In this document: positions 2 to 46,007 of the stretch, one piece after another
Layout of the letters: each line of letters opens with the position of its first letter
Position numbering within the stretch: position 1 is the first letter of the stretch
Sequence record: PP359570
Length of the DNA stretch: 64,000 bases
Strand: one strand, 5' to 3'
From: Escherichia phage ALITA
Notes under the pieces: model-generated
The model's database searches: none
The model's input: only the letters and a program-made list of their open reading frames with translations
What the model was told of the DNA's origin: nothing
Position numbers and translations under genes: made by a program

Positions 2-1726
2 GCCACCCAGTTGAAAGATACAGATGGAGCAGAGTTAATAGGACATAGAAACGCTACGGTTGGCACTACTCTGGATTCAATTGCAGTCCGCTCAGATCAA
101 TTTTCTACTATTCAGGAATGGGCATCATACCCAGCAAAGCACAAAACTTTAGCAGGCGGAACATATACTCTGGACTCTACTCTCAGTGTTGAATGTGAAT
201 CACTGACCACTGAGGGTGTAGTTACTATAAATGCTTCTGGTTCATTCATCGCTATGTATTTTGGTACAAATCAGCGAGATTTACTAACCACTCTTAGCTC
301 TGATATTTCAAAAGGGATAACCAGTCTTACTGTCGATAATGTTCAGGAAGGAGATACTTTATGCTTTTATAATCCTTCTGATTTTTCATGGTCTGGATAC
401 CGGAATTATTATCGTAGTGGAGAGTTTGTTAAGGTTGTTAGATATTCAAATGGGATTGCACACTTCAATGGAGGGACGAAAGCCGCATACCCATCTGGGA
501 CTCAAGTTTACAAGCTAAAAACAAAAAAAGTTTCTGTAAGCGGGGCTTTTGTATTTAATTTTCCTTCATACGACAAAACTGCTATGGCTATGCAATTCGA
601 GCAGATAGCTGATGGTAACTTTGACAATCTCGTTGTCACATCTCACACCGCCCCTTATGCCGTTCAGTTTAAACGTTGTTTCAATCTTACCGGTAAGGGG
701 ATGCGTCTCACACAGGAATCTCCTTCTGTAAGTTTTGGCTTAGAATATGGTTGCTACATCTGCAATAGCCAGAATATTGATTTTGAAGGTATATTCTGTG
801 CAGAGCGCCATGCAGTCACTGTTACAGGTAATGATGAAATCTGCGGTATTGTTAACAGATTTGTCAGTGTTAACGCCAGCGGTGGCGGTGCAATCATGAC
901 CACAGGGCAAGGCAAGGTTGCAGCAGCAGACTGGCACGGAAACACTGAAAAGTGCAGGTATGGTGGATATATTCAAGGGCTTGCTTGTGGTGGGTCTAAA
1001 AATAGCGCACGTGGTGCTCATATCGACCACGTACCTAACACCCCGGCATGGCCTAACATACTCGCTACGGAACTTAAGTCAATTGAGTTTGATTTAAGCA
1101 ATATCCATGTTACAGGGATAGGTGATCCATCTTCAGTAAACAGAGGTTGTATTGATTTTGGAGGTAACTCCACTGCATTTGGAGCTAATACTGTAGAACC
1201 TGGCACTTTGAATCTTTCTGGGGCTGTTATTGATTCTCCCGCAAACGTGTTGATTGAGATAAGGAACAGGGGTTCATTGGCTGCTCACACCATAAATCTT
1301 AATGGAGTTACCGCTAATGCAGAGAGCGGTAAGTACACGGTCAGGATTGCGCCAATTGGAGAAGGTATTTCCCCTTCAGATGTTTACATGGCAGGATTTA
1401 AGATGCCTGACGGCAGTATCTCACAGATAAATAACCTGTCATCAGTGAACGTACACGGGGTGTCCAAAAAAGGTAGATCTTCTATAACCATACCAAGTGG
1501 GGCCAGTTCTGCGGAGTTAACCATCCCTTTCGATTCCACTGTACTTGGTGCTCCGAAATCAGTTCAGTTTAATCGGTCAGGGCTTGTTCCAGCGGCACAA
1601 GCAAGGATTGTATTCTCTGAACGAACTTCGTCACCAACAGGGTTTCGGGTTATCGCGGCAACAGCTAACGGTAATACGCTCTCAGCAGACCTTACTATAC
1701 CGTTCTCATGGCGTGCAGATTGGTAA
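2..1726 (+). CDS. Tail fibre/tailspike-like structural protein; frame is open to window edge, so probably 5'-truncated (ORF track start at 11 is TTG without SD)
   Basis: Long ORF at head of structural block; G/S/T-rich beta-rich composition typical of fibre proteins; no SD upstream of position 11. Confidence 0.55.
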   Translation, partial: ATQLKDTDGAELIGHRNATVGTTLDSIAVRSDQFSTIQEWASYPAKHKTLAGGTYTLDSTLSVECESLTTEGVVTINASGSFIAMYFGTNQRDLLTTLSSDISKGITSLTVDNVQEGDTLCFYNPSDFSWSGYRNYYRSGEFVKVVRYSNGIAHFNGGTKAAYPSGTQVYKLKTKKVSVSGAFVFNFPSYDKTAMAMQFEQIADGNFDNLVVTSHTAPYAVQFKRCFNLTGKGMRLTQESPSVSFGLEYGCYICNSQNIDFEGIFCAERHAVTVTGNDEICGIVNRFVSVNASGGGAIMTTGQGKVAAADWHGNTEKCRYGGYIQGLACGGSKNSARGAHIDHVPNTPAWPNILATELKSIEFDLSNIHVTGIGDPSSVNRGCIDFGGNSTAFGANTVEPGTLNLSGAVIDSPANVLIEIRNRGSLAAHTINLNGVTANAESGKYTVRIAPIGEGISPSDVYMAGFKMPDGSISQINNLSSVNVHGVSKKGRSSITIPSGASSAELTIPFDSTVLGAPKSVQFNRSGLVPAAQARIVFSERTSSPTGFRVIAATANGNTLSADLTIPFSWRADW

Positions 1727-5386: not shown

Positions 5387-5938
5387 ATGAAAAAAGACAT
5401 TATTTTTACAGGTTTTGAATTGTATGAACCAGAATTAACAGAAGAAAATATTCTTTATCTTTCTGTTGGTGGTGGTTTTTTGCAAGACAAAGATGGTAAC
5501 GACTGGTATCAGCTTCAAAAAACTTTGATGGTAGAATATCCCGACGCTTATTTTATTACCTTAGATGATAATAATATTGTACGTGGTGCTACTAAAGATG
5601 TTACTACCTATTTCCCTGCCGGACAATCTATTTTAGTTACATATAATGTACCAGATAAAATAGAAGATGAAAGTAATATTGGCTCTTGGCAATATGTTGA
5701 AGGTAAGTTTGTTCCTCACAATAATCTTGCTATTGAAGATGCTACTCTTAGGTTAGAAAAGGAGCTAACTTGGGCTACGAATCAAGTATCTGCGATTCAA
5801 GATTTAGAGGAATTACAAGGTTTATCTGAAGAACAAAAAGATTGGTTAGGAAAAGTTAAACTCTATCGTGCAACATTAATTCAAATTAACGTTGAAGATG
5901 CACCTAATATAACTTGGCCTACAAGACCTAAGAAATAG
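5387..5938 (+). CDS. Hypothetical structural/fibre-assembly protein
   Basis: 183-aa ORF with SD AAGGAG, in fibre cluster. Confidence 0.45.
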   Translation: MKKDIIFTGFELYEPELTEENILYLSVGGGFLQDKDGNDWYQLQKTLMVEYPDAYFITLDDNNIVRGATKDVTTYFPAGQSILVTYNVPDKIEDESNIGSWQYVEGKFVPHNNLAIEDATLRLEKELTWATNQVSAIQDLEELQGLSEEQKDWLGKVKLYRATLIQINVEDAPNITWPTRPKK

Positions 5939-10706: not shown

Positions 10707-10745
10707 TCAAAGCCCCTTCGGGGGCTTATTGTTTAAGGAGATTAA

Positions 10746-12905
10746 ATGTATCCTATTCCTTTATTTATGTCAACAACATCAGCTTCAGTAGTAACAGCTA
10801 CATCTATAACTACTTCCTCTATTGGTATTGCAATAGTTGGTGGTAAAAAACAACTGACATACACAGTTACACCCGAAGATGGTGCGTTATTTGATATAGC
10901 TTTTTCATCTTCAGATGATACCAAAATGGTTATAGATAATAGTGGTATGATGGAGTTTGTTGCCGAAGGTGGTTTTGATGCAATAATGACAGCTAAAAAT
11001 AATTTAGGTGCTGTCTTAACTGATCAATCTGGTGGTTATGCTTCAGAATTAAGTGTGTACACTGAAAGTCTATCGGCTATGGATGTAGGCACTACTCAAC
11101 AGTTGGTTGCTACAATCAGTCCAGAAGGTGCTAAAGACCTTCCAGATATGGTAATTACATACACCACAACAGATCCAGAAGTAGCTACTGTAAGCCCTAC
11201 AGGGTTAATAACTGCTCTTAAAGATGGCGGTTGCCGTATAGGTTGTACTGCAACGTATCAAGGAACAGTTGTGGCCTCTGATAGTTCTTATTTAGGTGTT
11301 AATGCTATTCCTGTTATTTCTAATGTAACAGCCGTGGCAAACAGCTATGGAGACGTTCGTGTTGCTTGGGATGTAGCTGATCCGCTAGACGGTGATACTT
11401 ATACTGTAGAAGTATTAGATTTAAGTAATAATAGTGTTCAGTGGACTACAACAACCACGAATACTTACGCCTACTTTGATATCTCTGACTCTATTCCTCT
11501 TTATGGGTTTGCTCCAACATACCTTAAAATTAGCGTTAAGAGCACCAAAGCAGCAGCCGTTATCTTTAATAACTCAATAGCTACAGATGATTCGTTCATT
11601 AAAGAAGTTATTGTCTTTGCTGGACAAGATAACGTAAATGCACACTTTACAGAACTATCTGGTGCAAATAAAGCAGCAATGGGTAGCACAACAGCCCGTA
11701 ATGCATATGCTACGCAACGTGGTTTAGCAAATGCTGAAGTTCTTCCGTTAAATACAGCTTCTGGATCATCAGCAGCAGATAAATATGCTGACGATAAAGC
11801 TGGAACAGGTACACCAGATAACTACTGGTATGATTTGGATAACACAGCAGATGGGCCATGCTTAACTAACTTTATCACTAAAGTCACACCTTATGCAAGT
11901 AAGGTTAAAGCAATTATTTGGGGACAAGGTGAAAATGATGCTGTATCAGCATCTTCGACTGTTGCAGGTAGGTACAGTAACACTACACGTTACCATGATG
12001 CTACGATAGCTATCTTTGATAAGATGCGTACAATAGTTCCTGCTTCTCAAGCAAAAATTGTTTGGCAGATCCTAGGACGTTCTTATTTATATGGTGTAGA
12101 AGTTAATGGTGTGGATTGGCAGAAGTACAGAAATGTACAAAGAACCATCTCTACAGCACGTGATGATGTTATCATTGGTTCTTGGGTAGATGGTGCTGAA
12201 CGTTACAGTGGTTATGTTTATGAAGAAGGTATTGATGGTCGTATCCATTATGTTTCTTCTGTATACCAAACAGCAGCTACAAAACTTGCTAAATCAGCAG
12301 CAGACGGTACAGACTTAACATCAACGTCACCTGTTTGGGTTGATATGGCTGTTCCAACTGGAGCAACAGCTACTTCCCAACCTAATCAAGATACAATTTT
12401 AGCATGGGATGCTCAAGGCTATAGTAAACACTACTTCCGTAATATTAACGTCTTAACCGCATCTGTATTAACTGAACAAACGCTTAATACGAACAGTTAT
12501 ACGTTTACCTATGCAGATCAAGTAGAACAATATGGTTTTGCAGCAGGAACTACTATATTTGATGTTGCATATTATGACGAAGCAAATGATGTGTTATCTC
12601 CTTTAGTACGTTTTAATGTTAACGTTACAGCAGGAACCGTAGAAGATAAACCTGTCGTGATGGACTATGATTTGACGCAAGAAACTCTTCCATCAGATGT
12701 TAAGGTTAATGGTGGGAACTCTTTTGCTCGTGCTTCTGGAGATATACTTGTAGCCACTAACACCTTGGTTGCTCCGTTGGAGTATGTTGGTAATACCCCT
12801 GTAGGTAGACGTGTAACAGCTAACACAGCTTCACAAATTTTTGTCAACAACGCCTTAACAAGTGCAAGCCCGTGGGTAAAGACCAACTTAACTGTTGCAG
12901 CTTAA
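10746..12905 (+). CDS. Tail fibre/receptor-binding protein with Ig-like (Big_2-type) domains and SGNH/sialate-O-acetylesterase-like domain
   Basis: 719 aa; SD AAGGAG; Ig-like repeats near N-terminus; esterase-like blocks FAGQDNVNAHF and WGQGENDA. Confidence 0.7.
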   Translation: MYPIPLFMSTTSASVVTATSITTSSIGIAIVGGKKQLTYTVTPEDGALFDIAFSSSDDTKMVIDNSGMMEFVAEGGFDAIMTAKNNLGAVLTDQSGGYASELSVYTESLSAMDVGTTQQLVATISPEGAKDLPDMVITYTTTDPEVATVSPTGLITALKDGGCRIGCTATYQGTVVASDSSYLGVNAIPVISNVTAVANSYGDVRVAWDVADPLDGDTYTVEVLDLSNNSVQWTTTTTNTYAYFDISDSIPLYGFAPTYLKISVKSTKAAAVIFNNSIATDDSFIKEVIVFAGQDNVNAHFTELSGANKAAMGSTTARNAYATQRGLANAEVLPLNTASGSSAADKYADDKAGTGTPDNYWYDLDNTADGPCLTNFITKVTPYASKVKAIIWGQGENDAVSASSTVAGRYSNTTRYHDATIAIFDKMRTIVPASQAKIVWQILGRSYLYGVEVNGVDWQKYRNVQRTISTARDDVIIGSWVDGAERYSGYVYEEGIDGRIHYVSSVYQTAATKLAKSAADGTDLTSTSPVWVDMAVPTGATATSQPNQDTILAWDAQGYSKHYFRNINVLTASVLTEQTLNTNSYTFTYADQVEQYGFAAGTTIFDVAYYDEANDVLSPLVRFNVNVTAGTVEDKPVVMDYDLTQETLPSDVKVNGGNSFARASGDILVATNTLVAPLEYVGNTPVGRRVTANTASQIFVNNALTSASPWVKTNLTVAA

Positions 12906-13565
12906 TCTGATAAATCTCCGGCTGGAACTACTGCCAATGTATTCAAATTAACTCCGACTACAACCTCTGGTAGTCATATCTTAACTGCAACATATACTAA
13001 CGCGTACAACATATCTGCCGGACGTAACTGGTCTGCCTCTGTTTTCTTGAAAGCGAACGGGATCACTAAGGCCAAACTAAGATTAAAAGCAGGAACTGAA
13101 GTTAATGAGGGTACTTTTGATTTAGCAGCAGGTACATTCACAGGAAGTGAAGCTAATATTATATCTATGGGCAACGGTTGGTATCGTGCTATTCTGCATA
13201 AAACAGGGATAGCCAAACAGTCCTCCATAAGTTTTGAAATAATTGCCTTGGATGCAACTGGTGCGGAGATTTTCGCTGGAGATGGTACTAGTAACCTTGC
13301 AGTTTGGTTGCCACAGCTTGAAGGTGCTTCTACAGGAGAAACATCAAAAGCTGGATCGCCTTATGTCTGCACATATCCTGGAAATTTAGGAGGAGTATCC
13401 TTCACTATACCAAGGAACGGACATACTGGTGTGGATGTTTACTATTCCAACGGAGACGTTGTTCGTGACGTATTCTCTGGTACGGCATCTACTTGGACAA
13501 TAAACTACTCCAGCTTGTACGATTGGGGATCAGTCTTTATTACAGGTTTGAAATATTACGACTAA
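12906..13565 (+). CDS. In-frame continuation of the preceding fibre gene after a single TAA (putative C-terminal distal domain; readthrough, pseudogene or error)
   Basis: Same reading frame as 10746-12905, no ATG or SD for 140 nt after the stop; ORF track start at 13047 is TTG. Confidence 0.4.
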   Translation, partial: SDKSPAGTTANVFKLTPTTTSGSHILTATYTNAYNISAGRNWSASVFLKANGITKAKLRLKAGTEVNEGTFDLAAGTFTGSEANIISMGNGWYRAILHKTGIAKQSSISFEIIALDATGAEIFAGDGTSNLAVWLPQLEGASTGETSKAGSPYVCTYPGNLGGVSFTIPRNGHTGVDVYYSNGDVVRDVFSGTASTWTINYSSLYDWGSVFITGLKYYD

Positions 13566-13598
13566 TAAAAAAGGAGCCATTAGGCTCCTTTTCTTTTA
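13566..13598. terminator. Bidirectional intrinsic terminator between convergent operons
   Basis: AAAAAAGGAGCC-ATTA-GGCTCCTTTTCTTTT hairpin flanked by A/T tracts. Confidence 0.7.
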
Positions 13599-16919: not shown

Positions 16920-19499
16920 CTAATGACAAGACGCCCATGAGTTACCAACATCGTAACCAGCAGTGAGAGGTACATTAAGATTGTAATACTCACCAGCTTT
17001 ATTAACAGCGATAGATGCTAATTCTCCAGCACGACTGTAGGCTGTAAACCAACCACCTTTCGGAGATTCATGTACGTTAGCCCAAATCTTGCCAGTACGT
17101 TTCTCTTCCTCTTCTTTCCAGGCATTAACCTTATCCAAACATTCTTTATCAATTTTCTTTTGTTCTTCTGGATCATCAACTTGAGTCCAACCTAAAGATT
17201 CTTTAGAGAACCATTTAAAATGCACCAGATCACGAGTTACTTCAAGCTGTGCTTCATCGTGATATGCAATCATTTGTTGAACGAATGACTTATTTTTCCA
17301 GTCATCAACAAAAAAGTCAACAGCTAATCCTTCTTCTTCGATAAGATCGTCGTAGATAACCATTGCTCTTTTTGCACAAATAACACCACCACTCTGGAAC
17401 AGAGAGTTAAGTATTGCGTGTGCAGATCGTGTAGGTACTTTCCTACCATCAATACCAAGAATGTATTTCTTACCTGTTTTAACCCAAAAATCATGCAGAC
17501 GTTCTTTAAGAAGCGCAAGAGGTTTTGCAGCTTCCCAGAAAGCATCGTATACAAGCTGTCCTGTATACATATCACTACCTATAGTTTTTGCTACTTTTGC
17601 AGCTTGAGCACCATAAGTAATACCATACTTAACAGATTTAGCAGGGCTTCGTTCAAACTTACGACCAATAGTGTCAGAAATACGTCGAGCCATCATTGTA
17701 TGAACATCATTAGGTTTTTCCAATAATAGAGCATTACAATATTCGTGTGGTTCCTGCTCGTACCGCCAACAGTAGTGTGATTCTATTTTTGCCTCAAGAG
17801 AATCAAAGTCATAACCAATTTGGAAGTATTTTGGAACTTCTACACCAAATAAGTTACGCATTTCATATCCGTACAGAGATGTTACACGTGGGATATTTGC
17901 TACTAACCTATGTTTCATACGAGACGTAGCTGCATCACACGTTGCAGCAGGAGTTGGTATACGACCATCAGCCCTTACTGCTGCCAGATAACCTTTATCG
18001 TAATCCTCTTCATCTTCTTCCCAATCAGCACCACCCCCTAGAATAGAGTTCCTACGGTGTTTATACGTAAGATACTGCACAATCTGCGTAGCATAAGGAA
18101 ACTTTTCACCTAGTGCTTCCAAGTTAGGACAAATATCTTTCTCTTGCCCTTTTGTAAAGGAAGGGTTAGTAAGCACTTTAACACCACGACCTTTAGCTTT
18201 AGCAATACGATCTCTTAGTTTCCATTCCAAAGTTTCTGGTGTGCACTCCAGATGATCACATCTGTCCTGGCAGAAGTTAGATGCTAACGTTTGATCAACA
18301 TAGTCACGAATAGCTTTCTCCATCTGTGCTTCATCTTTCTTAATCTTAGTGCCAGATTTAAGAGTGATATCTTTATCTTTATATTCAGATGGACTCCAAC
18401 CTAAACCAACTAACCAATTTTTAATATGTGTAGTGTCGTCTAAAGTAGCAGGTACTGTAGGATCACAAATAGGTTCTTCTGCTGGAATAGGCAGTTTAAA
18501 CTCTTTACCTAATGCAAATAACCACCAACCATCTTCTTTTTGTACAAGTTCACCAGAATGTTTCTCTGCAAACTTTATCATGTTACTTGAAGGTTCACCA
18601 TTCTTTTTAAACTGTAGTTTAGGTGGAATGAATGATTTCAAATAACCTTTAGTAGCAGGTTTAGGAGGTAGCACAGGTTCTGCCTCTAAACGACATGCTT
18701 CCATTCGAGCATCCAGATCACGAATATTATCTTCTGCTTGCTTCATATTGAAAGCAAAGCCACGGTGCTCTTGACGTGTAATAATATCAGCTACACGTTG
18801 TTCTAAGTTAAATGGTTCAGACCACTTATTATAATCACCCCACTCTTCCATCAAATAACGGAACACTGCGGTGTTAGCTTTGTTATCGTAAATACAGTAA
18901 TACAGCATATCTGCTGCAAATGTTTTAAATCTTTCAGTTTCAGGGATGTTTTTTCTAAAATCAATTTTAACATCCCCTCCAGCTTTCTTAGATAACTCTG
19001 CCAGACTATGACCACCGAAGCGATCAGGGTTTAGTGTCTTACTTAAGATCATAGTATCACAAATTTCAATGTTACTATTACCCCAAGTATTGTACTTAAT
19101 ACTGTAGTTGAGTTTAAAAAATAATTTAATTGCCAGTAAGTCAAAGTTAATGATGTTATGTCCAACTACTTTGGTAATTTTATAGTTTGAATTACCTTTA
19201 AATTTACCTGTTCCATTTACAAAATCAGGAAAATCTTTAAGAGGGAAATGGGTATATTCTAAATGCTCATATTCCTCCAGTCGGTATTCATACTTTCCGT
19301 CAGTCTCAATATACGGACGACCATCGAAAAGATATTTATCACCATCATGGAAAGCAATAATCTCTCCAGTATCATGACTTTCGCACACAATACAGTGCAT
19401 TGCAAAACTATCTTTTAAACGATATGGACTTGCCAAGTAATCTACACTTTCGTCATTAAGCAAGTTGTTACTTTCAATGTCGAAAGTAAAAGCTCCCAT
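16920..19499 (-). CDS. DNA polymerase, family A (T7 gp5-like)
   Basis: 859 aa; motif A GYDFDSLEAKI, motif B RSPAKSVKYGITYG, motif C YHDEAQ; C-terminus ...NSWASCH like T7 ...NWAICH; SD AAGGAGG. Confidence 0.95.
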   Translation of the reverse strand: MGAFTFDIESNNLLNDESVDYLASPYRLKDSFAMHCIVCESHDTGEIIAFHDGDKYLFDGRPYIETDGKYEYRLEEYEHLEYTHFPLKDFPDFVNGTGKFKGNSNYKITKVVGHNIINFDLLAIKLFFKLNYSIKYNTWGNSNIEICDTMILSKTLNPDRFGGHSLAELSKKAGGDVKIDFRKNIPETERFKTFAADMLYYCIYDNKANTAVFRYLMEEWGDYNKWSEPFNLEQRVADIITRQEHRGFAFNMKQAEDNIRDLDARMEACRLEAEPVLPPKPATKGYLKSFIPPKLQFKKNGEPSSNMIKFAEKHSGELVQKEDGWWLFALGKEFKLPIPAEEPICDPTVPATLDDTTHIKNWLVGLGWSPSEYKDKDITLKSGTKIKKDEAQMEKAIRDYVDQTLASNFCQDRCDHLECTPETLEWKLRDRIAKAKGRGVKVLTNPSFTKGQEKDICPNLEALGEKFPYATQIVQYLTYKHRRNSILGGGADWEEDEEDYDKGYLAAVRADGRIPTPAATCDAATSRMKHRLVANIPRVTSLYGYEMRNLFGVEVPKYFQIGYDFDSLEAKIESHYCWRYEQEPHEYCNALLLEKPNDVHTMMARRISDTIGRKFERSPAKSVKYGITYGAQAAKVAKTIGSDMYTGQLVYDAFWEAAKPLALLKERLHDFWVKTGKKYILGIDGRKVPTRSAHAILNSLFQSGGVICAKRAMVIYDDLIEEEGLAVDFFVDDWKNKSFVQQMIAYHDEAQLEVTRDLVHFKWFSKESLGWTQVDDPEEQKKIDKECLDKVNAWKEEEEKRTGKIWANVHESPKGGWFTAYSRAGELASIAVNKAGEYYNLNVPLTAGYDVGNSWASCH

Positions 19500-19567
19500 T
19501 CTCCCTCCTTAAAATATTTCTAAAGTCTTAATTTGTTAATACTGTACCACAAATTAATTGTTTTGTA

Positions 19568-19589
19568 AAGGGGCTTTCGCCCCTTCTTG
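19568..19589 (-). terminator. Hairpin between small gene and DNA polymerase gene (attenuator or processing site)
   Basis: AGGGGC-TTTC-GCCCCT stem-loop; weak U-tract. Confidence 0.4.
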
Positions 19590-19986
19590 TTATTTATTGT
19601 CAGCACTTAGTTGTACTTTAATAAGGCAATTAGGGACACCATTGGTATTTCTCAAGCCTACACGTTCAATTTTAACAGTGCCTGTCAAACCATTAAAAGT
19701 GGAAACAATGTTATTAATGTTTTCATCCTTACTAGTGATATCAAGAATAACTTTATCACTGACATTTTTCAACATACGATCTACAAGCTCTCCCACAAAA
19801 CCACTGGTAGTTTGAATGAGAAGGTATAGACAACCATCCTCAAACCACAAATGTTCACCATAAGCATAACCGTATGGTTCTAATTCTGATCCGTCTTGAA
19901 ATTTAAACTTAGCAATAGTTTTCGTATAATCATACGCTAAAGCAGAAGGGCATACCCCATAGAGGATGTTTTCGTTGTCTTTCATA
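19590..19986 (-). CDS. Hypothetical protein
   Basis: Start reassigned to internal ATG with SD GGAGAAA (MKDNENIL...); 132 aa. Confidence 0.45.
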
Positions 19987-42754: not shown

Positions 42755-45529
42755 TTAGTTTACCAGTTTATTTATATCTGGTAAAAGATTTATTTCACCT
42801 AAGAAATCACCTTCACCTTCCTCTAGCCAACTCTCATATGCTTGTGCATGATTATAGTTACCATCAAAAGAATCTGCAACAAATTTTTCTACAGTTTTTC
42901 GAGATGTGCCAGCACCAAATACACCAAGTTTAATACCATTGATCGGTAAAGTGGTGCTTGTGGGTACTTTCTCTGTTGCAACACGGTTGATATCTATAAT
43001 CTCCTGTACGGTTGTGTTCCATTGTAAGCATTTAACACAACGGGTATGCGCTACATACAGTAGGTTTCGCTCTGCCTCTTCCAGTCCTACCCATTCACCA
43101 GTCTTTTTATCATAGTTGGAAGGAAAATCATTAGCAACAATAACCTGATCCCACTCCAAACCTTTAGACTTGTGTGCTGTAGTCAGTGTGACTTTTGCTG
43201 TAGGAGAATTTCTATGCGTTCTAAGTGTATGTGCTATAGTGTTTGCCTTACCAGAAACTACGATGTTTAACAAGCGTTTAGCATCTGGATCAGCCTCTGC
43301 ACACTCAACAAATTCATCCCAGTCTGCGTAAGGTAATACAGTTTCATGTTTTACTTTCTCAATATCTCCTCTCCGAAGAGCATTAACACTATCTACCATA
43401 GAGATAAAATCCCTGGTATCTACGTTAATAATAATTTCTTCCCCATCTGCAATACGATCCATTGCCTCCATAAGCAAGGTTAAATTCTTGCGAAAGATGA
43501 TAGTGTAAGGTTTTGTATAGTCTACAACATCTGATTTGTAGCTACCTACTACAGTATCAAAGCCTTTACCAACCAAAGGATGACGCAAAGGTTCTTTATC
43601 GCTTAAAATCATATTGGCAATGTTTGCCACTTTGGGGCCAAAACGGAAGCAAGCAGTTAATGGAAGTTCTGCCCCATACTTAGCTGTTTCAATCATCATA
43701 TTAGAGCTACCTCTAAATTGATAAATGCAGTTGTGGCTAAGAATTTCATTGCCAAAGAAGTTAGCAGTATCCTCTACTTCAATATCATAATAGATACCCT
43801 CACTATCTACAATGTCCACAATCTCTTCTGCCGTTACAGTATCACCATCTTTTACCAACACAGACATGCCTTTAAACAAACCCGCTGCCGGAATTAAGTT
43901 ATATTTGGCACTGTTCACAGAGGACATGCATTCTTTTAAAGATGCAAACGGAACTATTTCAAGGATCTTTTGTGCAAAACTCAATGCTTCACGATAAGAA
44001 TTGAAATATTTACGTACACGGTAACGACCTTCCAATTTAGCAGCACTTACGCTTACACCTGCTTTAATCAGTGAAGAATAGATCGGCATTTCACTTTCTG
44101 TCCACTCAAAACTAACTTGTGTTCCTTTACAACCTTGTGCTCGCAAAGTCACTGTTAGCATTTTTCTTTCATCTACTGCACAATTGATGCTGTGCCAGTG
44201 TGGATAAGCAAAATGATAATCTTTATCCTCTAAAAGTTTAAAACCATTTTGTCCGAATTGTTCAAAGATGTTATTGATCCTTTCTTGATTAATGCCGCGT
44301 GAACTTGCTTCAAATACACAAGTAGGAATGCCATATTGTAAACTGTAAGCCATTTCTTTTTCCATAGCAGCTTCACGGTTTTCAACAATATCCAACACCC
44401 ATAATTTCTGTGCTTTTTCAGAACGTGTACGTTGCCCCAGTTTAGAAAAACCTTCTTTATCATCGAATTTGTTAGTGATCCCTACTCGGAAACCTAAATC
44501 TTTCCTCCACATTAGGTATACCACCATCTGATCATCTTTCAGAACATAGGATGAAGCCCAAATACGATGGTTATGTGTCATATCTAAAGTTTTACCTGTG
44601 GCAGTAATAATATTCCTACCTTTTGTACGTGTAGATAAAGTCTTATTTGTTACTTTTCTAAATGTAACTTTACCATTAGAATAAGACTCTACCTTATCAC
44701 CGATTTGCAGGTCTTTCATTGTAACCTGACCATTCTCGGTATTAAGTACCGTGTTTTCCGACACACATTGGAATTCATCGCCCACTACCACAATTTGTTT
44801 TGCAGATTTAGCATTTCGCAGAATAGACAAGAATGCAGGGTTAACATCCTGGAATTCATCACCAAAAATAATATCATAACCAAGATCAGCACCAGACAAT
44901 TCAAACAATTTTACATAGGTGTCATGCGTCATTAAAGTATCTGTGTTAGGATCGATGCGCTCTCGCCACAATTGTTTTGCATACTTAACTACTTCTGTAA
45001 TTAGTTTGTGTTCGTTAATACCTTTTCTTTTAATATCTGCAAGATGTACACTAGGAAAATGTTTACGGCTGATAAAAGGATCATCCGAAAATTCAAACTT
45101 ACCTACGGTTTGCTTGATCATTAAACCGATCATAGCACGAGTTAAAAGTGTTTTACCTCGTTTATCAATAAGATTATTAATCTTAAATTTCTTTGCTATC
45201 TCACTACCTGTACCTGCAACGTTAACATACTGTCCTTCTGGTCGTGACAGTTTTGCACGTAAACGATGATCCAGGAATTGATAGCAAATAGAATGCAATG
45301 TACGGCATTCTACATTTAGTGGCATCTTACGTCGTGCTTCTTCTGCCATGCTTTTATTGAAAGCTAAGTAAAGAATGCGATCTTCTGTACTGTTAGCCAG
45401 CAAATAAAGTGTTGACGTTTTGCCTGATCCAGATTTAGCTTGGATAGTTAAAAAGCGATGGTCTGGAAAAGCCTCCTTAATAGCTGTTTGCTCTTCTGTT
45501 GGAGTGAAGCTCAACTCTTTCTTAGCCAT
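42755..45529 (-). CDS. UvrD/Rep-family SF1 helicase interrupted by an intein
   Basis: Walker A AKSGSGKTS; motif II IFGDEFQDVN; motif III split as VVVGDEFQ | intein | CIYQFRGS; start set at ATG with SD (MAKKELS). Confidence 0.85.
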   Translation of the reverse strand: MAKKELSFTPTEEQTAIKEAFPDHRFLTIQAKSGSGKTSTLYLLANSTEDRILYLAFNKSMAEEARRKMPLNVECRTLHSICYQFLDHRLRAKLSRPEGQYVNVAGTGSEIAKKFKINNLIDKRGKTLLTRAMIGLMIKQTVGKFEFSDDPFISRKHFPSVHLADIKRKGINEHKLITEVVKYAKQLWRERIDPNTDTLMTHDTYVKLFELSGADLGYDIIFGDEFQDVNPAFLSILRNAKSAKQIVVVGDEFQCVSENTVLNTENGQVTMKDLQIGDKVESYSNGKVTFRKVTNKTLSTRTKGRNIITATGKTLDMTHNHRIWASSYVLKDDQMVVYLMWRKDLGFRVGITNKFDDKEGFSKLGQRTRSEKAQKLWVLDIVENREAAMEKEMAYSLQYGIPTCVFEASSRGINQERINNIFEQFGQNGFKLLEDKDYHFAYPHWHSINCAVDERKMLTVTLRAQGCKGTQVSFEWTESEMPIYSSLIKAGVSVSAAKLEGRYRVRKYFNSYREALSFAQKILEIVPFASLKECMSSVNSAKYNLIPAAGLFKGMSVLVKDGDTVTAEEIVDIVDSEGIYYDIEVEDTANFFGNEILSHNCIYQFRGSSNMMIETAKYGAELPLTACFRFGPKVANIANMILSDKEPLRHPLVGKGFDTVVGSYKSDVVDYTKPYTIIFRKNLTLLMEAMDRIADGEEIIINVDTRDFISMVDSVNALRRGDIEKVKHETVLPYADWDEFVECAEADPDAKRLLNIVVSGKANTIAHTLRTHRNSPTAKVTLTTAHKSKGLEWDQVIVANDFPSNYDKKTGEWVGLEEAERNLLYVAHTRCVKCLQWNTTVQEIIDINRVATEKVPTSTTLPINGIKLGVFGAGTSRKTVEKFVADSFDGNYNHAQAYESWLEEGEGDFLGEINLLPDINKLVN
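43730..44767 (-). mobile_element. Intein (~346 aa) inserted in helicase motif III, with a central putative homing-endonuclease region
   Basis: N-terminal Cys (CVSENTVL), block B TxxH (LDMTHNH), C-terminal ...FFGNEILSHN followed by extein Cys. Confidence 0.7.
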
Positions 45530-45530
45530 T

Positions 45531-46007
45531 TCAACCTCTCTTAATTTGTTTAACAAGCATAGGAACAAAGTCTCGTTTTAAAATTTGTTCAATAATATGA
45601 TCAGGTAGCTGTTGGAAATTATAATTAAAAGCTACTGTCTCACCTTTAGGCGTTTCTACCCGCACATATAACATGTTACGAAGTTTATCAACTTGTGCTG
45701 TATATTCTAAACCATGTAATTGATGTAATGCAAACATCAAATCATCAGTTTCAGTTTGGAATCTATCCCTTCCCTGCATCAAGGACAAGGAAAAAGGTAG
45801 ATTTTCCCTAAGAGCCACCTTCTTAGGAACTAGTGAAGGAAAATACTCACCAATAACTTCCTGTGTAAGCTGGATACACTCTTTTTCAAGTTGGTTTTGT
45901 TCCTTAAGTTCACAAACACTTTTTTGTAAAGTGTTAACCTCTTTTTGCAAAGCTGCTAGTTGAGCACTTAACTTTCTTTTTTGATTACGACCAAAACGTT
46001 TAGACAT
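45531..46007 (-). CDS. Hypothetical coiled-coil protein
   Basis: 158-aa ORF. Confidence 0.5.
   Translation of the reverse strand: MSKRFGRNQKRKLSAQLAALQKEVNTLQKSVCELKEQNQLEKECIQLTQEVIGEYFPSLVPKKVALRENLPFSLSLMQGRDRFQTETDDLMFALHQLHGLEYTAQVDKLRNMLYVRVETPKGETVAFNYNFQQLPDHIIEQILKRDFVPMLVKQIKRG

Follow-up and report, generated by a model that had tools for sequence, protein, structure and literature searches.

The side tail fibre gene stf of phage lambda PaPa is, as far as analogy goes, the closest analogue of the locus described here. In this laboratory strain the gene is split into two open reading frames (ORFs) by a frameshift, which Hendrix and Duda are said to have described in 1992, and the loss of the fibre and its effect on the plaques have reportedly been demonstrated experimentally. 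The loss of stf in lambda PaPa may improve spread or plaque formation. Bacteriophage Qbeta is the second system to be considered, because its coat protein is extended to the A1 protein by readthrough of a conserved, leaky UGA codon and the extension is essential. The tail fibre gene of Escherichia phage ALITA can be compared with both. It has in common with lambda PaPa stf that, in a propagated phage stock, one disruptive mutation in an accessory side-fibre gene leaves two consecutive ORFs, where the wild relatives have one gene; the lambda PaPa mutation, however, is a frameshift, whereas that of ALITA is a nonsense codon. With Qbeta it shares an in-frame stop codon in the gene for a virion protein, followed by a long open extension, but in every feature tested the ALITA stop is unlike that of Qbeta, being a non-conserved UAA-U and lying inside a domain. 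As a feature of the sequence the stop in ALITA is real, and it belongs to an ordinary and well-understood class.

The records closest to ALITA, the genome of which is 147,398 bp in size, are those of Justusliebigvirus phages (Stephanstirmvirinae, phi92-like). No paper on phage ALITA itself was found in the literature, and the paper on the phi92 structure (PMC13450770) does not cover a fibre protein of the ALITA type; by the annotation of phage Paula, phi92 carries different genes, gp152/153, at the position of the fibre gene. Two of the forms that the gene takes among the relatives are the closest to that of ALITA. The 939-aa orthologues in Justusliebigvirus (PaulScherrer bas60_0037, Paula_0165, alia gp033 and KMB37 WQN06861.1) are collinear with ALITA over all 939 codons, with about 98.6-99.4% nucleotide identity and with the same neighbours, Shine-Dalgarno (SD) sequence and terminator, but they have TCA or TCG at codon 720, where ALITA has TAA, so that its product is limited to 719 residues at most. 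The other form is a natural 628-aa allele of phages muut, arall and AV123, which has the same N-terminal 628 residues as ALITA and lacks the distal module. In this allele the whole cassette of 311 codons is absent, whereas in ALITA the cassette DNA is present and is interrupted 91 codons in.

The features of the locus are given below in coordinates of the window, that is, the whole stretch of 64,000 nucleotides of ALITA DNA that was analysed.

10735 to 10740, plus strand: SD sequence AAGGAG of the fibre gene (upstream string TTATTGTTTAAGGAGATT; anti-SD duplex of -9.2 kcal/mol).
10746 to 12905, plus strand: truncated fibre ORF of 719 aa (GenBank WWP17711.1, "tail carbohydrate esterase").
12630 to 13565, plus strand: C-terminal cassette, codons 629-939 of the ancestral 939-aa gene, interrupted at codon 720.
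12903 to 12905, plus strand: premature ochre stop TAA, in which C-to-A at 12904 turns Ser-720 (TCA) into a stop.
12906 to 13565, plus strand: presumed untranslated remnant, 219 codons of the distal beta-sandwich and fibre-tip region with the native stop.
13047 to 13565, plus strand: 172-aa CDS with a TTG start, annotated in GenBank as "tail protein" (WWP17712.1).
13569 to 13592, plus strand: strong intrinsic terminator hairpin that ends the fibre gene and is common to the convergent downstream gene.

A preliminary description of this DNA, made from the letters of the window, had reported a 719-aa fibre ORF ending at TAA 12903-12905 and the same frame staying open for 220 more codons up to 13565. 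The ORF and its end were confirmed from the sequence, and the frame is indeed open, although the count has to be corrected to 219 sense codons plus the stop. This native stop of the fibre gene, TAA 13563-13565, is in frame with the premature TAA (coordinates all 0 mod 3), and the terminator 3' of the gene is also annotated as a terminator in phage Paula. At a random-codon stop probability of 0.065 (38% G+C), 219 open codons have P = 4e-7, and none of 20,000 shuffles of the post-stop segment was free of stops; the open frame is therefore not a product of chance. The description had further noted that neither an ATG nor an SD follows the stop for about 140 nt and that the other genes of the window have clear SDs. 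Both observations hold, since the first in-frame start codon is TTG 13047, 141 nt downstream, the first ATG is at 13167, and the median anti-SD duplex of 52 real genes in the window is -8.8 kcal/mol.

The comparison with related phages, which had been suggested as a check for a fused ORF, was carried out and gave one CDS in 7 of 7 annotated relatives: 939 aa in each of inny, Paula, alia, PaulScherrer and KMB37, and 942 aa in each of the more distant EmilieFrey and VivaForever. Two separate genes with their own starts, the alternative outcome, were found in no annotated relative examined. The fibre gene of ALITA is 99.4% identical to those of inny and Paula, and tblastn over residues 1-939 likewise gives 99.4% identity with one stop within the alignment. 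Codon 720 is TCA or TCG (Ser) in all seven relatives at the DNA level, and at the protein level all 40 of the 40 homologues with the flanking motif have Ser at this position; what separates ALITA from its relatives at codon 720 is one C-to-A transversion at 12904. Over a stretch of 251 bp at the stop, all of 20 other phage records differ from the window, the two closest by exactly one base, and this single base is the C-to-A change. In addition, an exact protein look-up found the 719-aa protein to be encoded by ALITA alone. About 30 homologue clusters (90% identity) have lengths of 936-939 aa, with no second 719-aa form among the clusters, and an exact scan of IMG/VR contigs gave no TAA variant, a degenerate pattern matching one contig. 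PHROG 11922 is a profile of the tail-protein family to which the gene belongs; the match to it reaches profile position 650 before the stop and resumes at 653-870 after it. Taken with the single CDS of the relatives, this continuity across the stop means that the two ORFs of ALITA are one gene, interrupted by a private nonsense codon. Judged by homology, the locus belongs to the 939-aa lateral fibre/esterase family (PHROG 11922 / 32204), in which it represents a truncated allele or a partial pseudogene.

The 719-aa ORF comprises a Big_2/Ig-like region at the N-terminus, a region with a weak SASA-like esterase signal and the opening 91 codons of the cassette. Residues 1-628 constitute a conserved core, which is covered by PHROG 32204 over the same 1-628 and whose fold resembles the tail appendage proteins of phage N4. 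The Pfam match to Big_2 in the N-terminal region has an E value of 4e-12; the match to SASA is sub-threshold (E 0.0047; 17 bits, where the curated cut-off is 24.8), the esterase region is of low confidence in the AF2 model, and the name "carbohydrate esterase" is taken from GenBank annotations. In muut, arall and AV123 the cassette that follows the core is cleanly missing; their alleles have a stop after codon 628, and the same terminator follows it. In EmilieFrey and VivaForever it is a strongly diverged allele, with dS of about 0.7-2.0 against 0.035-0.054 in the N-terminal part, and a dN/dS of 0.15-0.32 indicates purifying selection; for the remnant region the dN/dS between the two diverged cassette alleles is 0.15-0.16. 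The cassette is also joined to other Big_2 N-termini in the metagenomic proteins P0154-P0156, with 97-99% cassette coverage. The part downstream of the stop had been described as an apparent C-terminal domain, which is right in substance, but the module begins at codon 629, that is, 91 codons before the stop.

The AF2 model was made of an intact homologue at full length and has a moderate pLDDT of 67.5, with poor esterase and linker regions, so it was relied on solely for residues 700-865, where its confidence is high. A single confident beta-sandwich (block pLDDT 71-96) is predicted to extend from about residue 697 to residue 865, and its strands lie at 697-700, 710-713 and 715-719 before the stop and at 732-861 after it. 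The stop falls inside the cassette and inside the predicted beta-sandwich, not at a domain boundary. In a PDB sequence search the 219 post-stop residues matched 9occ_C, "tail fiber protein gp17" (E 3e-15; residues 254-455 of gp17), and the head spike fibre 6tb9 of the Rhodobacter capsulatus gene transfer agent RcGTA (E 3.5e-9), both of which can be aligned by sequence; no Pfam family matched this piece. Foldseek matches of the fibre tip are baseplate or tail-fibre chains of Pseudomonas phages Pa193 and E217, whose identity to the ALITA-type tip is only 20-24%. From these matches the lost part is the distal tip of the fibre, which probably binds a surface glycan.

Programmed readthrough giving two fibre isoforms had been put forward in the preliminary description as one meaning of the stop. 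Readthrough, whether programmed or mediated by a suppressor, would yield two isoforms, of 719 aa and 939 aa, and it would agree with the 219 open codons, with a downstream part that is a genuine conserved protein module and with a phage family that has 15-16 tRNAs, several of which would need a single anticodon change to become an ochre suppressor. The base after the premature TAA, however, is T, and the resulting UAA-U context is not of the leaky UGA or UAG type; in E. coli, translation is terminated most efficiently by UAA followed by U, as Poole, Brown and Tate are said to have reported in 1995. The 98 nt from the stop have no significant RNA structure, with a z of -1.38 and 19 of 200 shuffles folding as well. 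A search for an Rfam recoding element near the stop gave none, the sub-threshold Rfam-like matches being only on the terminator hairpin. There are no tRNA genes in the 64,000-nt window, the tRNA cluster of ALITA lying outside it. A suppressor anticodon is absent among the 15 tRNAs in the complete genome of inny, the closest relative (cluster at 43.4-46.2 kb), and phage BME3 has 16 tRNAs with no suppressor among them (PMC12210895).

The most probable explanation is a very recent C-to-A nonsense mutation at 12904, in the ALITA lineage or stock, which breaks the lateral fibre gene. As proposed here, the change from TCA (Ser-720) to TAA would have arisen in that lineage or stock as an ordinary premature ochre stop in an accessory lateral tail-fibre/carbohydrate-esterase gene that has 939 codons in relatives. 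Translation would stop at codon 720, and the product would retain the 628-residue core together with 91 residues of an incomplete C-terminal module but would be without nearly all of the distal beta-sandwich, a fibre-tip-like domain. The 219 downstream codons would then be an untranslated remnant whose decay has not yet begun, and the gene would be dispensable on the propagation host, the mutation being tolerated or possibly selected. Codons 629-719 are identical in ALITA and Paula, and the post-stop part has two synonymous changes and one non-synonymous change, the latter (S/F, residue 827) being polymorphic among the intact relatives. This near-identity, with no decay after the stop, shows that the stop is very recent. 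A recent nonsense mutation and a sequencing error had also been among the meanings considered at the outset, and it is these two that gain support from the relatives, in which the 939-aa ORF is fused and codon 720 encodes Ser (TCA/TCG).

What would remain of the protein can be considered by analogy with the natural short allele. The viable 628-aa alleles of the muut type indicate that the distal module is dispensable. Because the 628-aa core is the whole protein in muut-type phages, the truncated protein should be one that can be built into the virion, and probably it still attaches to the virion and keeps the esterase region, without the distal binding domain. The 91 extra residues probably cannot complete the fold and form an unfolded tail, and the ALITA allele would thus in part phenocopy that of the muut type. 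Phages of the Justusliebigvirus type carry several parallel receptor-binding proteins (PMC8594841; PMC11984140, which discusses the NGR glycan in the host recognition of Justusliebigvirus), so that on the propagation host the phage would tolerate losing a single tip.

The nonsense mutation has to be weighed against a sequencing, assembly or consensus error, in which case codon 720 of the actual phage is TCA and its 939-aa gene is intact. Such an error is unlikely, but it is the alternative that deserves the most weight. The difference is a single base, it is private to one record and the sequence downstream of it is without decay, all of which an error would produce, and the same facts fit a very recent mutation. 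Against an error, what changed is one base by substitution (GCTTCATCT to GCTTAATCT), and not in a homopolymer, and typical consensus errors are homopolymer indels. Moreover, a comparison with inny that covered 66 other CDS found every one of them intact (one with an in-frame intein) and zero frameshifts, so the assembly looks accurate, and a rare random error would create a stop with only about a 4% chance. Among the coding differences between ALITA and inny, about 400 in number, there is a single nonsense change, against about 17 expected in the absence of constraint, and it sits in a module known to be dispensable.

Very improbable, by comparison, is an arrangement of two genes, in which the downstream piece has its own translation start at TTG 13047 and becomes a separate subunit of the fibre. 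Fibres divided between two polypeptides are known from some phages (Maffei et al. 2021, PMC8594841), and GenBank does list the 172-aa "tail protein" WWP17712.1 at this place. However, all of the in-frame starts that would give more than 44 aa have SD interactions at background level, 0.7 to -2.2 kcal/mol, against the gene median of -8.8; the anti-SD duplex is -2.2 kcal/mol for TTG 13047 and -0.2 kcal/mol for ATG 13167, where the background median is -0.9. Furthermore, a product starting from residue 768 would be without the first strands of the sandwich in the AF2 model, and a separate gene occurs here in no relative examined. With no ribosome-binding site and with the first strands missing, independent initiation is unlikely, and the 172-aa "tail protein" is most likely an artefact of gene calling. 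Readthrough is the least probable of all, since programmed readthrough needs a conserved stop and that of ALITA is private, missing from every relative examined and with nothing evolved around it, and since the short isoform would end inside the beta-sandwich, in a UAA-U context and with neither an RNA structure nor a suppressor tRNA found in the searches described above; even taken together, readthrough and independent translation have only a slight chance of being correct.

The two CDS annotated in ALITA, of 719 aa and 172 aa, are accordingly to be read as one interrupted gene, and the 172-aa "tail protein" should not be propagated as a member of a protein family. If the nonsense mutation is real, then ALITA, a "Swiss army knife" phage with several receptor-binding proteins, is a natural knockout for the distal module of one of them, and its comparison with the near-identical inny or Paula could help to assign a receptor to this module. 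As to translational recoding, nothing new is to be learnt from the ALITA stop.

It is also conceivable, though on balance doubtful, that the stop is one instance of a recurrent and selected loss of the distal glycan-binding module, for example by better spread or better plaques on the isolation host. A link between isolation on K-12 and loss of the module was considered and rejected, because phages with the intact gene (inny, alia) and without the cassette (muut) were all isolated on K-12 MG1655. Recurrent loss would fit the cassette-less 628-aa alleles. Other shortened forms that would fit it are an independent frameshift allele of 687 aa, P0133, which ends in ...NTPCR, and the N-terminally shortened calls P0131 and P0115 in public assemblies.

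The 172-aa "tail protein" that GenBank places after the premature stop of the tail-fibre gene is the remnant of that broken gene annotated as a coding sequence of its own. It is listed here with the features that are compared below with phage inny, the closest relative.

Features discussed, in window positions
13047-13565, + strand: 172-aa "tail protein" WWP17712.1 (GenBank), TTG start
11..1726: ORF with matches to tailspike Ig-like and pectate-lyase-like (Gp49) domains
5387-5938, + strand: 183-aa protein, 80% identical to its inny counterpart
42755-45568, - strand: UvrD-type helicase ORF, insertion at about 43702-44773

The TTG at 13047 has no ribosome-binding site, and WWP17712.1 is probably not a protein. 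Further shortened versions of the tail-fibre gene are present among public assemblies, namely the homologues P0133, P0131, P0115 and P0116. P0133 has 687 aa, ends in ...NTPCR and lies on contigs of up to 145.7 kb, and its shape suggests a +1 frameshift at about codon 685; the remaining ones have been called with a shortened N-terminus, beginning at M312, M111 and M61. These may be independent disruptions or contig-end artefacts.

At the window start, the domains of the ORF at 11..1726, together with the lack of a megablast match to inny for positions 1-2015 (the first 2 kb) between flanks about 99% identical to inny, identify this as a swapped tailspike allele, a case of the receptor-binding-protein mosaicism typical for Justusliebigvirus. 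The 183-aa protein, whose neighbours are 98-100% identical to inny, is a further tail-module allele with local divergence.

Outside the window, a 1.7-kb stretch of inny (137188-138954; 17857-19623 of inny locus L012) carries zero annotated genes. ARAGORN found no tRNA in it and no Rfam family reached the gathering threshold; the inny record annotates a repeat region inside it.

The helicase ORF encodes 937 aa in ALITA versus 578 aa in inny. The additional stretch (about residues 267-613) is in-frame and matches the Intein_splicing and Hint domains, so the ALITA helicase contains an intein that is absent from the inny version.
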